From Octopus vulgaris (taxonomy: Eukaryota), in NCBI GenBank assembly GCA_951406725.2, contig OX597814.1, positions 33,604,001 through 33,668,000 of the forward strand: a stretch of DNA of 64,000 nt, written 5' to 3'. A program made the position numbers and the translations under genes. Of the stretch, positions 20,967 through 49,188 are shown piece by piece. Every line of letters starts with the position of its first letter. Within the stretch, counting starts at the first letter, position 1. A model generated the notes under the pieces. That model saw only the letters and a program-made list of their open reading frames with translations, ran no database searches and had not been told where the DNA came from.

Positions 20967-21797
20967 GTTTTGTCCTTCTTTCTTCAATTTTCTTCTGTTT
21001 CTCGCCGAGTGTTTTCCATACACCTAGGGCAGAGAAGGGCATTGTATGCATTCCCAGATTACACACTCAAATTCACAGATGAAATATGTATTTAAAAATT
21101 AATAAATAAATAAATTCATGGATGGATGTTATTTTCACAACGATAGTGCTCTTCTCAGTACATGAGCCGTTCCAGTTAATACGATTTTTTGCACTTCCTG
21201 TAGGGATGGTAAGCCTGGAATCATTTTCAAATAGGTTTCAGTACCGTTTGTATCATTCCTAGAGATCCTATAATCACTGGTACTGTAGTCGCCTTGAGAT
21301 GCCACATTTTTTCAATTTCCATTAACAGGTCTTTATATTTACTAATCTTGTCAAATTCTTTCGCCGCTATATTGTGATCACAGGGAATACTCATGTCAAT
21401 TAATAAATACATCCTTTTTGTCTGATCTTTTATAATGATATCCGGTTTATTGGCTTTTATCGTCCTGTCGGTCTGCACGGGGAAGTCCCATAGAATCGAC
21501 ACATTTTCTCCCTCAGTCACAGCTTCAGGATGATGTTTATACCATTTGTCAGCGGTTTTGATTTTATAATGCCGACATATTGTCCAGTGTAAATACTGGC
21601 CAACTCTGTCATGTCTTGCTTTATATTCTGCAGGGGCTAAGACTCTACACCCTGAGATTAGGTGGTCTATTGTTTCAATCTCATTGTTACAGAATCGGCA
21701 TTTTGGGTCAGCTCCATTTTTCATCACATTGGCTTGGTAGTTCCGGGTAAATAAGCTTTGGTCTTGAGCAGCTAATATGAAACCTTCACTCTCTGCT
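20967..21797 (-). mobile_element. Dong-like LINE 3' end (CCHC + RLE) in (TAA)n
   Basis: CRFCNNEIETIDHLISGC, RHDRVG, NKPDIIIKD..LIDMSIP..KISKYKDL; flanked on both sides by (ATT)n. Confidence 0.9.
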
Positions 21798-21875: not shown

Positions 21876-22159
21876 GAAAACTGACAGCTTATTTTGCTGG
21901 GTATGATAGAAAGTGTCAGCTGTCCACAGCCAGCAGATTAAGGTGACACTTATTTCCTAGTCATGCTTCAAGAACCCTGCGAAGAATTCTTGCAGTTTAC
22001 TTGTTTACTCTACTTATGACTTGTAGAATGGCTAGCAATTGCTGGATTACGACCGGGCGCATCCTGCTACACAGTGGGACAACTACCGATTGCGGCACCT
22101 TCACCATTTGTTCCAGTTCCATTCATACCGTTATCGTCATCTATTTTGTTTGGCATTTT

Positions 22160-25100
22160 CAATGGCACTCTTCTTTAAATTTTGACTCTATATCTTCAGG
22201 AGGAGTTACCTCAATCCTTTATACATTAACCAAAATTATTTTTTGAACCAGTTGAAGACACACAAGATGTCGAAATATCGTTCACTAGATAACAATGGCA
22301 CTCTTCTTTTAATTTTGACTCCTTATCTTCCAGAGGAGTTACCTCAATCCTTTATATATTAACCAAAATGAAGTAGATTGACAAAATTATTTTTTGAACC
22401 AGTTGAAGTCACACAAGATGTCGAAATATCGTTCACTAGATAACAATGGCACTCTTCTTTTAATTTTGACTCCTTATCTTCAGGAGGAGTTACCTCAATC
22501 CTTTATATATTAACCAAAATAAAGTAGATTGACAAAATTCTTTTTTGAACCAGTTGAAGACACACGAGATGTCGAAATATCGTTCACTAGATAACAATGG
22601 CACTCTTCTTTTAATTTTGACTCTATATCTTCAGGAGGAGTTACCTCAATCCTTTATATATTAACCAAAATGAAGTAGATTGACAAAATTCTTTTTTGAA
22701 CCAGTTGAAGACACACAAGATGTCGAAATATCATTCACTAGATAACAATGGCACTATTCTTTTAATTTTGACTCTATATCTTCAGGAGGAGTTATCCCAA
22801 TCCTTTATATATTAACCAAAATGCAGTAGATTGACAAAATTATTTTTTGAACCAGTTGAAGTCACACAAGATGTCGAAATATCGTTCACTAGATAACAAT
22901 GGCACTCTTCTTTTAATTTTGACTCCTTATCTTCAGGAGGAGTTACCCCAATCCTTTATATATTAACCAAAATGCAGTAGATTGACAAAATTAGTTTTTG
23001 AACCAGTTGAAGTCACACAAGATGTCGAAATATCGTTCACTAGATAACAATGGCACTCTTCTTTTAATTTTGACTCCTTATCTTCAGGAGGAGTTACCTC
23101 AATCCTTTATATATTAACCAAAATGCAGTAGATTGACAAAATTAGTTTTTGAACCAGTTGAAGTCACACAAGATGTCGAAATATTGTTCACTAGATAACA
23201 ATGGCACTCTTCTTTTAATTTTGACTCCTTATCTTCAGGAGGAGTTACCTCAATCCTTTATATATTAACCAAAATAAAGTAGATTGACAAACTTATTTTT
23301 TGAACCAGTTGAAGACACGCAAGATGTCGAAATATCGTTCACTAGATAACAATGGCACTCTTCTTTTAATTTTGACTCCTTATCTTCAGGAGGAGTTACC
23401 TCAATCCTTTATATATTAACCAAAATAAAGTAGATTGACAAACTTATTTTTTGAACCAGTTGAAGACACGCAAGATGTCGAAATATCGTTCACTAGATAA
23501 CAATGGCACTCTTCTTTTAATTTTGACTCCTTATCTTCAGGAGGAGTTACCTCAATCCTTTATATATTAACCAAAATGCAGTAGATTGACAAACTTATTT
23601 TTTGAACCAGTTGAAGACACGCAAGATGTCGAAATATCGTTCACTAGATAACAATGGCACTCTTCTTTTAATTTTGACTTTATATCTTCAGGAGGAGTTA
23701 CCTCAATCCTTTATATATTAACCAAAATAAAGTAGATTGACAAACTTATTTTTGAACCAGTTGAAGACACGCAAGATGTCGAAATATCATTCACTAGATA
23801 ACAATGGCACTCTTCTTTTAATTTTGACTCCTTATCTTCAGGAGGAGTTACCTCAATCCTTTATATATTAACCAAAATAAAGTAGATTGACAAACTTATT
23901 TTTTGAACCAGTTGAAGACACGCAAGATGTCGAAATATCGTTCACTAGATAACAATGGCACTCTTCTTTTAATTTTGACTCTATATCTTCAGGAGGAGTT
24001 ACCTCAATCCTTTATATATTAACCAAAATACAGTAGATTGACAAACTTATTTTTTGAACCAGTTGAAGACACGCAAGATGTCGAAATATCGTTCACTAGA
24101 TAACAATGGCACTCTTCTTTTAATTTTGACTCCTTATCTTCAGGAGGAGTTACCTCAATCCTTTATATATTAACCAAAATGCAGTAGATTGACAAACTTA
24201 TTTTTTGAACCAGTTGAAGGCACACAAGATGTCGAAATATCGTTCACTAGATAACAATGGCACTCTTCTTTTAATTTTGACTCCTTATCTTCAGGAGGAG
24301 TTACCTCAATCCTTTATATATTAACCAAAATGCAGTAGATTGACAAACTTATTTTTTGAACCAGTTGAAGACACGCAAGATGTCGAAATATCGTTCACTA
24401 GATAACAATGGCACTCTTCTTTTAATTTTGACTTTATATCTTCAGGAGGAGTTACCTCAATCCTTTATATATTAACCAAAATAAAGTAGATTGACAAACT
24501 TATTTTTTGAACCAGTTGAAGACACGCAAGATGTCGAAATATCATTCACTAGATAACAATGGCACTCTTCTTTTAATGTTGACTCCTTATCTTCAGGAGG
24601 AGTTACCTCAATCCTTTATATATTAACCAAAATAAAGTAGATTGACAAACTTATTTTTTGAACCAGTTGAAGACACGCAAGATGTCGAAATATCGTTCAC
24701 TAGATAACAATGGCACTCTTCTTTTAATTTTGACTCCTTATCTTCAGGAGGAGTTACCTCAATCCTTTATATATTAACCAAAATAATGTAGATTGACAAA
24801 CTTATTTTTTGAACCAGTTGAAGACACGCAAGATGTCGAAATATCATTCACTAGATAACAATGGCACTCTTCTTTTAATTTTGACTCCTTATCTTCAGGA
24901 GGAGTTACCTCAATCCTTTATATATTAACCAAAATGCAGTAGATTGACAAACTTATTTTTTGAACCAGTTGAAGACACGCAAGATGTCGAAATATCATTC
25001 CCTAGATAACAATGGCACTCTTCTTTTAATTTTGACTCTATATCTTCAGGAGGAGTTACCTCAATCCTTTATATATTAACCAAAATAAAGTAGATTGACA

Positions 25101-25317
25101 AACTTATTTTTTGAACCAGTTGAAGACACGCAAGATGTCGAAATATCATTCACTAGATAACAATGGCACTCTTCTTTTAATTTTGACTCCTATATCTTCA
25201 GGAGGAGTTACCTCAATCCTTTATATATTAACCAAAATGCAGTAGATTGACAAACTTATTTTTTGAACCAGTTGAAGACACACAAGATGTCGAAATATCG
25301 TTCACTAGATAACAATG
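22160..25317 (+). repeat. Tandem array of 151-bp units (21 copies of the core motif), each with a hammerhead-like fold
   Basis: gaaccagttg starts at 22245, 22396, 22547 ... 25265 (period 151); units differ by a few SNPs. Confidence 0.97.
22244..22284 (+). ncRNA. Minimal type I hammerhead-like motif, variant core CAGUUGA (first of 21 copies)
   Basis: tgaac-CAGTTGA-a-gaca(cacaaga)tgtc-GAAA-ta-TC-gttca; same layout as the motif at 10730. Confidence 0.55.
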
Positions 25318-25319
25318 AT

Positions 25320-25492
25320 ATACGTATATATACGACAGGCTTCGTACATTCTCCGTCTACCAAATCCAAACCACTCACAAGGCTTACGTCGGCAAGAGTA
25401 GAAGACGCTTACCCAAGGTGTCATGCGGTGGAACTGAACCCGAGGCCAGGTGGTTGGGAAGCAAGCTTCTTACCACACACCCACTCCTGCGC
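25320..25492 (-). mobile_element. SINE family B 5' half, diverged
   Basis: Reverse-complement head; its central TA tract abuts the end of the 151-bp array. Confidence 0.7.
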
Positions 25493-25854
25493 CGATACAT
25501 TATATGATTTGCCTAACAGTGGTTTTATCTCTAATTTAATATAATATATATATATATTGCGGCGTACGTACACTTTGCTCTTTTATATGTAAGTATATAT
25601 ATATATGCATAATACATAAGTACATACGTACGTACATACATACATACGTACATCTGCGTGGCAGTAGGGTAACGTGGGCGCGCCTGCACGTGCTGGAAAA
25701 TGAACATATTTTAACCTCTCGTCATTTTTATACGCTTTTCAGCAAATCTATTTATTGTTATAGCTTTTAAACTATATAGTTGAGGAGGGAAAAAAATAAG
25801 TAAAAGACTTCAAGTTTTAAAGGGTTCTCTTTTCCATTTTTGCAATTCTTAATT

Positions 25855-28091: not shown

Positions 28092-28253
28092 CCATCATCA
28101 TCACTACCACCAACATCATCATCACCATCATCAATCATCAATCATCACCAACACTAGCACCACCATCATCATCATCATCATTATCAATACCAGTCATCAC
28201 TAAAACGTTAAAACTATAATCCTCATCGTCACCAGCAGTATCATCGTCATTGA

Positions 28254-28285
<32 letters not shown>

Positions 28286-28389
28286 ATATTAGTCATCATT
28301 AAACTAATTAGCATCAATATCGCCAATAACGTTAATACTATAATCCTTACCACCACCACCACCACCACCGTCATCATCATCATCACCAC

Positions 28390-28420
<31 letters not shown>

Positions 28421-29465
28421 ATCATCATAGCTCTTGCTAGCATGATCATATCGCTACCATCATTATCGTCATCATCACAGCATCATCGTCGTAGTCGTTA
28501 TCGTCATTATCATCATCATGATCGTCATCATCATTCCGCCAACCGACATCACTATCATCACCATTATCTTCATCAGAAACATCATATCCATCAGCAACAT
28601 CGTTTTCGTCAGCATCATCTTAACTATGATCATGATCATCATCATTATCATCATCATCATCGTCGTCGTCATTATCATCATCATCATCGTCATCAACATC
28701 AACGTTGACATCATCATCATAATCATCATCATCGTCATCATCATCACTAACATCATCATCATCATCATCACCATTGACATCATCATCATTATCATCATCA
28801 TCGTCATTATCATCATCATCGTCATTATCATCGTCAGCGTCATCACCATTTACATTATCATCATCATCATCATTATCATCATCATCGTCATTATCATCAT
28901 CGTCAGCGTCATCCCCATCACCATTGACATCATCATCATCATTATCATCATTGTCATTATCATCATCCTCATCGTCATCACCATTGACATTATCATCATC
29001 ATCATCATCATCATCATTATCATCATCATCATCATTATCATCATCATTATCATCATCATCGTCATCACCATCACCATTAACATTATCATCATCATCATCA
29101 TCATCATCATCGTCATTATCATCATCATTATCATCATCATCGTCATCACCATCACCATTGACATCATCATCATCGTCGTCGCCATCATCATCATCATCAT
29201 CATCGAGATCGCCATTGTCATTATCATCATCATCATCATAGTCATCACCATCATCATTGACATCATCATCATCATCGTCGTCGTCGTCGTCATCGTCATC
29301 ACCACCATCAACTGCCATCATCAAAACCAACATCACGGTCATCATTTTTATCCTTACAAATCATCACCATCACCATCACCATAGACATCACCATTTTCGT
29401 CATCACCATTTTCGTCATCATCATTTTCGTCATCACCATTTTCGTCATCATCATTTTCGTCATCG
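28092..29465. repeat. Long degenerate (ATC)n/(ACC)n/(GTC)n trinucleotide array
   Basis: Direct reading; source of the poly-I/H/S/D/M ORFs. Confidence 0.95.
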
Positions 29466-29904
29466 CTCTCCTTTTATTATTTCCAGCGTTCTTACACATA
29501 AAGCTCTGGAACAAATATTTTCCTATTAAAACTATTACGCATAGCTGTTTCTGTTATTGCTGTTATTGCTGCTGCTGCTGCTGCTGCTGTTTTGTGGTTG
29601 CTGCTGCTGCTAATGCTGCTGCTGCTGTTTCTGCTACTGTTGTTATTTTTGGTATTATTTCTGTTTGTTTTTTTTTTTTTGTCTTTCATTTTGTTAAGCA
29701 ATTTATATATAGTTCACCTTTTGTCTCTACTCTATATTCTTCTTGCTCTTGTCACTATTGTTGTTGTTGTTATTTATGGTGGTGGTGGTGGCGGTGGTGG
29801 TGGTGCTGCTGCTGCTGCTACTATTGATGCTGCGGCTGCTGCAACTGCTGCAGTATGAAACAGTGCCGACAACGATAAGGAGGTGAAGCGTGGTGGATGA
29901 AGGG

Positions 29905-30073
29905 GAATGAAGACGATGACGAATGAAGACGACGACGACGACGATGATGATGATGGTGATGATGGTGACGATGATGACGATGATGATGGTGGTGATGGTG
30001 GTGATGATGATGATGACGATGATGATGATGATGATGATGATGAAGAGGAATGAAGACGACGACGACGACGACG

Positions 30074-30105
<32 letters not shown>

Positions 30106-30785
30106 GGTGATGATGGTGACGATGGTGATGATGATGATGGTGGTGATGGTGGTGATGAGGATGATGATGATGATGACGATGATGATGATGATGATAATGA
30201 TGATGATGATGATGAAGACGATGATGATGATGATAATGACGATGATGAGGAAAATGATGGCAATGATTAAGAGTATGACGACGACGACGACGAAGTTGAT
30301 GTTTGGGGATGTGGTAATGATGATGGTAATGGTGGTGATGATGATGAGGAGGAGGAGGAGGATAGCGACGTCGACGACGATGACATTGATAATGATGAGC
30401 AAAATGATGACGATGGTAATGACCATGACGACGACGACGACGACGACCAAGACAACGGCGGCGGCGATTGTGGTGTTGCTGGTGATGGTGCTCGTAGTAG
30501 TGGTGGTGGTGGTGGTGATGGTGGTGAGGATGAAGAGGAGGGGGAGAGGGAGGGTAGGAGGAAGAGAATAATGGCGAAGATGTCTATGTCGACTACGACG
30601 ATAACGACGACGATGATAATGTAGATGATGATGTGGTGGCGGCGGTGGCGGTGGAGGTGGTGGAGGCTGCGGCGGCGGTGGTCGTGGTGGTGGTCGTGGT
30701 GGTGGAAGGCGGTACTGATGCTGAGGAGGAAGATGCGGAGAACGATGACGACGATGTCGTCTCTCGTATTAATGACATGATGACG
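29905..30785. repeat. Long degenerate (GAT)n/(GAC)n/(GGT)n array, opposite orientation to 28092-29465
   Basis: Direct reading. Confidence 0.95.
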
Positions 30786-47665: not shown

Positions 47666-48031
47666 CACACTCCGTAAATCTCATCCAAAATTATCCCCTT
47701 TCTACTCCACCTTGTGCTAAATCCGCAATGATTCTATAAACGGTGACCTAGAAAATGTTCGACAATATAAATAAAGGATCAGGAAATATTTCATCCTTCT
47801 ACATCTAGACCTCTATAAATCATGTGACACCTGCAATATATTATTCTCATATTTGGGAATGTGTTGTTGCTACACAACCAAATATCCTAAAACGTATCCA
47901 ATAAAAGTGATTCAATTAAATGGCGAGCATTAAGCAACACACGAACACACGTCAACCTATAGTACACATCCCTCGTCTATTTTTCCACCACAGCTCAAAT
48001 TATCTCCTCTCTTAGGAGCTAGCTGGTTGCA

Positions 48032-49188
48032 TACCTATTTCTTTACTACCCACAAGGGGCTAAACACAGAGAGGACAAACAAGGACAGACAAACGGATTA
48101 AGTCGATCATATCGACCCCAGTGTGTAACTGGTACTTATTTAATTGACCCCGAAAGGATGACAGGCAAAGTCGACCTCGGCGGAATTTGAACTCAGAAGG
48201 TAGCGGCAGACAAAATACCTATTTCTTTACTACCCGCAAGGGGCTAAACACAGAGAGGACAAACAAGGACAGACAAACGGATTAAGTCGATCATATCGAC
48301 CCCAGTGTGTAACTGGTACTTATTTAATTGACCCCCGAAAGGATGAAAGGCAAAGTCGACCTCGGCGGAATTTGAACTCAGAAGGTAGCGGCAGACAAAA
48401 TATCTATTTCTTTACTACCCACAAGGGGCTAAACACAGAGAGGACAAACAAGGACAGACAAACGGATTAAGTCGATCATATCGACCCCAGTGTGTAACTG
48501 GTACTTATTTAATTGACCCCGAAAGGATGAAAGGCAAAGTCGACCTCGGCGGAATTTGAACTCAGAAGGTAGCGGCAGACAAAATACCCATTTCTTTACT
48601 ACCCGCAAGGGGCTAAACACAGAGAGGACAAACAAGGACAGACAAACGGATTAAGTCGATCATATCGACCCCAGTGTGTAACTGGTACTTATTTAATTGA
48701 CCCCGAAAGGATGAAAGGCAAAGTCGACCTCGGCGGAATTTGAACTCAGAAGGTAGCGGCAGACAAAATACCTATTTCTTTACTACCCGCAAGGGGCTAA
48801 ACACAGAGAGGACAAACAAGGACAGACAAACGGATTAAGTCGATCATATCGACCCCAGTGTGTAACTGGTACTTATTTAATTGACCCCGAAAGGATGAAA
48901 GGCAAAGTCGACCTCGGCGGAATTTGAACTCAGAAGGTAGCGGCAGACAAAATACCTATTTCTTTACTACCCGCAAGGGGCTAAACACAGAAAGGAAAAA
49001 CAAGGACAGACAAACGGATTAAGTCGATCATATCGACCCCAGTGTGTAACTGGTACTTATTTAATCGACCCCGAAAGGATGAAAGGCAAAGTCGACCTCG
49101 GTGGCATTCGAACTCAGAACGTAGCGGCAGGCGAAATACCACTAAGCATTTCGCCCGGCGTGCTAACGTTTCTGCCAGCTCGCCGCCT
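48032..49188 (-). mobile_element. Tandem hexamer of SINE family D (one full unit and five 184-bp units) inside one target-site duplication
   Basis: Unit starts at 48032, 48216, 48401, 48585, 48769 and 48953; gctggttgcatacc at 48022 and 49191. Confidence 0.92.

Follow-up and report, generated by a model that had tools for sequence, protein, structure and literature searches.

Non-LTR retrozymes are short non-coding tandem units with one type I hammerhead ribozyme each; they occur in genomes as monomers, dimers and multimers, expand locally into arrays and share homology with the pseudo-LTRs of Penelope-like elements (PLEs) (bioRxiv 10.64898/2026.07.22.740005 and the available part of PMC7229834). 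Their reported circular RNAs range from 150 to >1000 nt, abundant RNA monomers are described in the same part of PMC7229834, and the hosts sampled in these papers do not appear to include the mollusc lineage considered here. The PLE origin of these retrozymes has been argued mainly from Xenopus (bioRxiv 10.64898/2026.07.22.740005). The minimal hammerheads of PLE pseudo-LTRs, as set out in the accessible sections of PMC4209133, combine a 5-bp stem I, a bulged base after position 9, a G10.1-C11.1 pair and a palindrome at 15.2-16.2, fold as dimers, and are slow even with a canonical core; a U3-A8 covariant is reported there from Schistosoma PLEs. In newt satellite 2 and the schistosome and cricket satellites, which the available part of PMC7229834 presents as transcribed and self-processed, each unit likewise carries one hammerhead with a weak palindromic stem III. 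The portions of Craig et al. (2021) at hand describe PLE insertions as tandem, inverted and microsatellite-biased, report that PLE clades without hammerheads proliferate and form the same tandem and inverted structures, and state that what the hammerhead does in Penelope-type transposition is unclear.

We analysed a 64,000-nt stretch of Octopus vulgaris DNA (the window) that contains a tandem array of a 151-nt unit. The unit is probably a non-autonomous PLE derivative resembling the non-LTR retrozymes, with a crippled ribozyme. The features discussed below are as follows.

22160..25317, plus strand: the array, in which the PLE-derived non-autonomous 151-nt element stands 21 times in tandem, with a 20-nt deletion in unit 1.
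22244..22284, plus strand: first minimal type I hammerhead homologue, predicted cut after C22279.
23293..23349, plus strand: representative intact hammerhead region with extended stem I (predicted fold), predicted cut after C23336.
23337..23438, plus strand: tail homologous to the PLE 3' end, including the AT-rich sites.
23433..23444, plus strand: seam (GATTGA joined to CAAA) at which the PLE tail is rejoined to sequence upstream of the hammerhead.
22160..22164, plus strand: CAATG at the left end of the array; the identical 5 nt stand at the right end, 25313-25317.
25318..25500, minus strand: flanking repeat that we take to be SINE-like, its TA-rich end adjoining the array; outside the element.

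Within the window, TRF called a repeat of period 151 at 22231-25317 (20.4 copies, matches 97%), and a motif scan found 21 hammerhead motifs spaced by 151 nt (18 intervals), 150 nt (one) and 152 nt (one), the last of them at 25264-25304. Counting the deletion in unit 1, the array is 21.05 units long. The 21 tandem copies of a 151-bp unit and the first cleavage position, C22279, which the original prediction had given from the letters of the window, are thus borne out. The period is not divisible by 3, and each non-coding unit holds one motif. The CAATG at both array ends possibly reflects microhomology or a target duplication. Nine of 72 long dispersed segments of the same family likewise consist of a whole number of units plus 0-8 nt (loci L035, L121, L141, L142, L152, L159, L163 and L164), which may point to microhomology at both junctions. 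Elsewhere in the window, 21230-21781 (minus strand) is presumably a LINE C-terminal fragment with a CCHC knuckle and a restriction-like endonuclease motif, and very long (CAT)n and (GAT)n trinucleotide tracts face each other at 28093-30267. Similar LINE ends lie beside many dispersed copies of the unit because both are found in (TAA)n tracts.

The first motif comprises stem I (TGAAC/GTTCA), the core CAGTTGA, a bulged A, stem II, GAAA and a palindromic ATAT. All 21 motifs carry CAGTTGA, as had been claimed, and all 21 therefore differ from the type I consensus CUGANGA at exactly the two positions predicted, by U4A and A6U; C3-G8, G5, A9, GAAA and the UH of the cleavage triplet are kept. The expectation of a hammerhead fold in every unit stands for the motif itself (21/21), but stem I, stem II and AUC are all intact only in 10/21 units. 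Stem I is broken in six units (ATTCA/ATTCC) and stem II in four (GTCA), one of which also has AUU, so that the stem-breaking substitutions already noted for some units affect 10/21; one further unit has a G-U pair in stem II. In predicted folds the motif forms the three-way junction of stems I and II with a dimer-formed stem III, intact in 10-11 of the 21 units. The MFE structure of the 61-nt region has the hammerhead shape (z = -2.04; 9/200 shuffles equally good) and includes an additional 6-bp stem Ib absent from the original prediction, giving a predicted extended stem I of 6 bp, a 2x2 internal loop and 5 bp. A relaxed hammerhead descriptor matched none of 20,000 shuffled units and one place in 121,400 nt outside the array. 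A CTGAAGA on the minus strand was rejected as a hammerhead, as inspection by eye found no stem II or GAAA behind it.

We found that the unit is not a local satellite but a family dispersed at hundreds of places in the genome (2.8 Gb, 227 contigs), with copies up to 3.7 units long; a genome-wide search for such copies had been proposed with the original prediction. A single-unit query gave 873 first-look candidates, of which 40 were scored. The seam, which is unique to the tandem unit, had 246 genome-wide matches (90 exact and 156 with one mismatch), whereas its reversed control had none. The 90 exact matches and the 10 listed of the 156 one-mismatch matches revealed no further long array, and the 83 exact matches outside the array have at most two seams per locus.

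We mapped 73 dispersed loci, picked from BLAST and pattern lists and hence biased to long copies and intact motifs. The longest segment per locus has a median of 176 nt (maximum 562), and 26/73 loci contain an inverted pair. The 5' ends are variable and spread out. In contrast, three AT-rich sites, which make up 19 of the 151 positions, account for 78 of the 102 3' ends (12.8 expected), and 80/99 outer 3' ends run into (TAA)n. In the array these sites are 23372-23383, 23416-23419 and 23426-23428; they are likely priming sites. Such marks match the tandem, inverted and microsatellite-biased insertions known for PLEs from the consulted portions of Craig et al. (2021).

A search of the genome for the canonical core gave 4 exact matches, 127 in total at no more than one mismatch, and one of the exact matches closes a decayed element with reverse transcriptase (RT) and GIY-YIG pieces. 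This PLE family has about 1,400 candidate copies by two first-look searches (1,479 and 1,363 candidates). Of the features of a Neptune/Nematis-type PLE (RT, CxxC linker and C-terminal GIY-YIG), the GIY-YIG domain was recognised by Pfam (PF01541, above cut-off, E = 4.8e-5) in one of three PLE fragments; the Pfam scan left the RT fragments unrecognised, and RT motifs and the CxxC linker were seen by eye. No intact PLE ORF was present among 150 scored matches, in which the longest open frame is 359 aa. In contrast to EN+ PLEs with a CxxC linker (Neptune/Nematis type, as characterised in the available text of Craig et al. 2021), the 151-nt unit encodes nothing.

The terminal segment of the PLE aligns with the whole unit, from the stem I arm to AAGTAGATTGA (alignment A1, from which row L042 was left out as it covered another stretch), and a single seam closes the unit. 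PLE sequence continues otherwise from the seam, which makes the 151-nt unit circularly permuted. Between the unit and a PLE copy, 1 of 27 positions in the stems, GAAA and TATC differs, compared with 24 mismatches at 95 tail positions (P = 0.014, Fisher's exact test); stem I and the AUAU palindrome are identical. By our own count, 38/55 PLE matches end at two places homologous to the main 3' ends of the daughter family, in a sample half of which was found by a query including the tail. PLE motif copies diverge from their majority by 5.6% (top matches), which overlaps the 5.2% of the CAGTTGA copies of the daughter and suggests that the partner was active in the same period. From these shared ends, the shared target and the overlapping age, mobilisation of the unit by PLE RT and endonuclease seems likely.

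The element combines two sets of properties: target and 3' ends in common with an autonomous PLE and inverted or partial tandem insertions, as in a non-autonomous PLE derivative, and dispersed monomers and oligomers with retrotransposition marks and homology to a co-resident PLE pseudo-LTR, as in a non-LTR retrozyme. The original prediction had offered a very small retrozyme or an amplified PLE terminal segment as alternatives; both hold, as one thing, in that a PLE terminal segment is now a dispersed non-autonomous retroelement. At 151 nt, however, the unit lies at the short end of the published retrozyme range and not below it.

The hammerhead of the PLE itself has the core UUGACAA, the U3-A8 covariant, in 45/55 motif matches. 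This covariation is the trace expected from selection on a real hammerhead. Judged from its canonical-core relatives and from this covariant, the motif of the unit is a true hammerhead homologue by descent. The U3-A8 core is fixed in the main PLE subfamily (L052-L080 and L183-L212, e.g. G000:C8:21786559-21786719) together with a G10.1-U11.1 wobble (49/55), and other PLE subfamilies keep CUGAAGA or CUGACGA cores, CTGACGA being found in the PLE copy L046. At L049 (G000:C2:62085750-62086075) and L177-L182, canonical CUGAAGA motifs share the stem I and the tail type, but no long ORF lies within 4 kb upstream; they probably represent truncated ends of further PLE subfamilies or a different non-autonomous family.

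The unit shares with the minimal PLE hammerheads the 5-bp stem I, bulged base, G10.1-C11.1 pair, palindrome and dimer fold noted above, and the Schistosoma covariant recurs in the PLE of this genome. It differs from them, as far as the available PMC4209133 text allows the comparison, in its deviations at positions 4 and 6, in a stem II of 4-5 bp compared with 7-8 bp in the Schistosoma motifs, and in being a free-standing 151-nt unit rather than the end of a coding element. Compared with non-LTR retrozymes, the hammerhead here is of the minimal PLE type, cleavage and circular RNA are predictions, and the core carries A6U in all subfamilies and U4A in this one, with the result that descriptor searches would likely miss the element. 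The satellites described in the consulted part of PMC7229834 are self-processed, whereas here the core is non-canonical and the expression observed is low read-through. The finding fits the kind of retrozyme described by Li et al. 2026 and behaves as a non-autonomous PLE, but it departs from that kind in the hammerhead core, and should not be filed as a working retrozyme.

A survey with positions 4, 6 and 7 left free gave 186 exact matches; among the 100 listed, 59 have CAGTTGA (16 of them in this array) and just 2 have A6 (hand count). In a sample obtained by a tail-only query CTGTGGA is the commonest core (15/38). Dispersed copies in our set have A4 in 87/88 cases and U6 in 86/88. These relatives carry the variant rather than a canonical core, which argues against amplification of one dead copy. 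All three subfamilies have A6U fixed, and one of them U4A as well; their mean divergences from the column majority are 5.2% (CAGTTGA), 5.7% (CTGTTGA) and 8.8% (CTGTGGA). By divergence and parsimony, A6U is older than the subfamily split and U4A later, so that the family retrotransposed in at least two waves without the canonical core. A 125-column tree, some rows of which include microsatellite flank, left the subfamily order unresolved and placed the PLE outgroup near CTGTTGA/CAGTTGA copies. The subfamily majorities retain C3-G8, G5, A9, GAAA, AUC and the two stems. A comparison of the CAGTTGA subfamily with CTGTGGA shows 0/27 changes in the scaffold against 11/117 elsewhere (P = 0.09, one-sided, not significant); an earlier count on the hammerhead (2/34 against 11/117) was not significant either. 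The unchanged scaffold leans towards constraint. In the open-access literature we found no report of natural U4A or A6U cores, or of this repeat family.

The array itself has a different history. Its 18 full units contain 11 shared and 11 singleton minor alleles, the shared ones in blocks. As copying of one RNA circle would give identical units, the shared alleles point to duplication after mutation. Four array alleles (43C, 44T, 107C and 134G) occur in 1/78, 0/78, 1/75 and 3/91 dispersed unit copies, which indicates that the array has been no source since these alleles arose; it could have been one before. The 21-mer is thus a DNA-level expansion, but the dispersed relatives with a canonical core that would have told against the original prediction were not observed, since the dispersed family has the variant core.

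Taken as a whole, the explanation towards which we incline, with modest confidence, is that a PLE hammerhead tail was joined head to tail and copied by PLE enzymes into (TAA)n with a crippled ribozyme, and that one insertion later expanded 21-fold as DNA. On this explanation, the unit would have arisen when the PLE terminal segment was closed by the one seam visible in the alignment. The PLE GIY-YIG nuclease would nick (TAA)n DNA, the free DNA end would pair with the AT-rich sites that follow the hammerhead at a distance of 36-47, 80-83 or 90-92 nt, and a template exceeding one unit would be copied by PLE RT; priming off both target strands would yield the inverted 5' pieces. The template would most likely be uncut multimeric RNA, since such a core, to judge from published mutagenesis, cuts poorly or not at all; alternatively, the RT may jump between monomers. 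The conserved scaffold would perhaps serve in RT recognition. After insertion, unequal crossover or slippage would have expanded the array, making the 21-copy locus an end product and not a current source. Against this explanation, no long source array was seen elsewhere among the 83 exact seam matches, and Pfam did not recognise the RT fragments of the proposed partner.

Whether the variant core cuts bears on the central step. For a type III hammerhead, the portion of PMC9901934 available reports a full pairwise scan in which single and double mutants of the core region were all low except the C3G/G8C swap; this concerns another hammerhead type. The accessible text of PMC3088659 gives cleavage below 0.1/min for a natural A6C variant, and poor in vitro activity for a U4C viroid variant that is still infectious. 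This weak but viable variant and the slow canonical PLE hammerheads suggest that low activity may suffice. Even among Xenopus retrozyme dimers with conforming motifs, 8/9 were uncleaved in vitro (bioRxiv 10.64898/2026.07.22.740005).

In three standard RNA-seq runs of a related organism (about 12 million records each) we found 163, 161 and 112 unit reads, on both strands, 79-89% of which continue into unlike sequence. The runs showed no abundant, stranded, self-contained RNA, in contrast to the plentiful retrozyme monomers of PMC7229834 (available part); libraries of this type can miss small circles. A run search listed no holder recorded as RNA, and contig X1 may be DNA. Two unrelated flanks in the RNA of the relative are joined to the unit at precisely the base that follows C17 (window 23337/23488/23639); neither matches this genome. 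Reads aligned to the end of the PLE revealed neither a start nor a stop site. The 5' ends of copies are not enriched at the predicted cut (3/102, 4.7 expected; 2/88, 4.1 expected), and the PLE control is also flat (1/29), so that this comparison does not discriminate and carries no weight here; L288, considered as a third copy starting there, proved to be an indel artefact. Tandem units within one insertion share more rare alleles than expected (23 against 4.1), the pattern expected from a circular template, yet divergence is not lower within than between insertions (0.106 against 0.094; P = 0.43).

The published mutagenesis and the RNA reads make it moderately probable, in our assessment, that the ribozyme is crippled and cuts poorly or not at all. 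Against this reading, and with it the explanation as a whole, stand the unchanged scaffold, the shared rare alleles, the viability of weak variants, the C17 junctions of the relative and the type III source of the mutagenesis. We regard it as possible, if doubtful, that C17 is still cut in vivo, either by a tolerated CAGUUGA or in trans by the PLE hammerhead, and that the element moves as a 151-nt circle.

The first of these routes corresponds to a working non-LTR retrozyme, in which CUGUGGA, CUGUUGA and CAGUUGA cut slowly as dimers and 151-nt circles are ligated and copied by PLE RT. Retention of the core contacts, AUC and both stems in the subfamily majorities agrees with it, as do the seamless 151-nt period, the 89/102 segments that span the predicted cut site (in a sample biased to contain the motif), the shared rare alleles and the weak viable core variants of PMC3088659 (available text). 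In predicted folds of the core helices, moreover, the double hammerhead costs 4.4 kcal/mol in the element and 4.4-5.2 kcal/mol in canonical relatives, and a cis dimer penalty of 9.8 kcal/mol was discarded as evidence against activity as those relatives pay a similar price on core helices. We nevertheless consider this reading unlikely: two near-invariant positions are changed and double mutants were low in the scan of PMC9901934 (portion available), about half of the array units break a stem and such changes have spread, no abundant stranded self-contained RNA was seen in the three runs (where circles may be missed), and most conforming Xenopus dimers did not cleave (bioRxiv 10.64898/2026.07.22.740005).

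The second route, in which the enzyme half is dead and the AUAUC/GUUCA substrate half is cut in trans by the PLE hammerhead through a mixed double hammerhead, seems to us improbable. Of the conserved positions, only nucleotides 4 and 6, both on the enzyme side, are changed, both partners have the same stem I and AUAU palindrome, and the predicted mixed-dimer penalty (4.4-4.8 kcal/mol) equals that of the homodimers; that calculation, however, speaks to compatibility only, two rare RNAs would have to come together and each unfold its extended stem I, and the enzyme-side stem II and GAAA are kept as well.

Slightly less probable still is that a dead PLE fragment was amplified solely at the DNA level, as an ordinary satellite with scattered monomers. 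The 21-mer bears signs of DNA duplication, and the window contains a second tandem run of a repeat fragment at 48031-49140; the insertion marks of the 73 mapped loci nevertheless largely refute this account. The 3' ends of dispersed copies are fixed and lie in (TAA)n, their 5' ends vary, and inverted 5' pieces occur as in the PLE; the copies also fall into subfamilies differing in age, and contain the seam, which is missing from the PLE. In the run at 48031-49140, part of a common SINE-like repeat is present six times in tandem (184 nt, 97%); it is the second retroposon fragment in this window to have expanded locally in tandem. Finally, a chance resemblance to the hammerhead, to which the lack of an Rfam match (no hammerhead family at E <= 10 in 22100-23000, nor among the 150 of 246 matches listed) and a fold z-score of merely about -2 might point, is refuted by homology, given the 0/20,000 shuffles matching the relaxed descriptor, the canonical-core homologues in the standard PLE position and the C3-G8 to U3-A8 covariation in the PLE, and we give it almost no credence.

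The main value of the finding lies less in the array, which adds little, than in the family. In one genome, a parent PLE whose cores are canonical or U3-A8 stands beside three daughter subfamilies, each altered at one or two core positions; sharing target and 3' ends, they form a ready natural series in which one can test directly whether PLE-type transposition needs self-cleavage. If C17 is cut in vivo, there would be a hidden class of retrozymes unseen by core-based searches, possibly a ribozyme parasite that outsources catalysis. If the daughters cut, natural hammerhead cores vary more widely than is known, and retrozymes are under-counted by current searches; if they do not, self-cleavage is dispensable for mobilisation. 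That the element likely kept jumping with a likely crippled core would suggest that self-cutting is not needed for such transposition.
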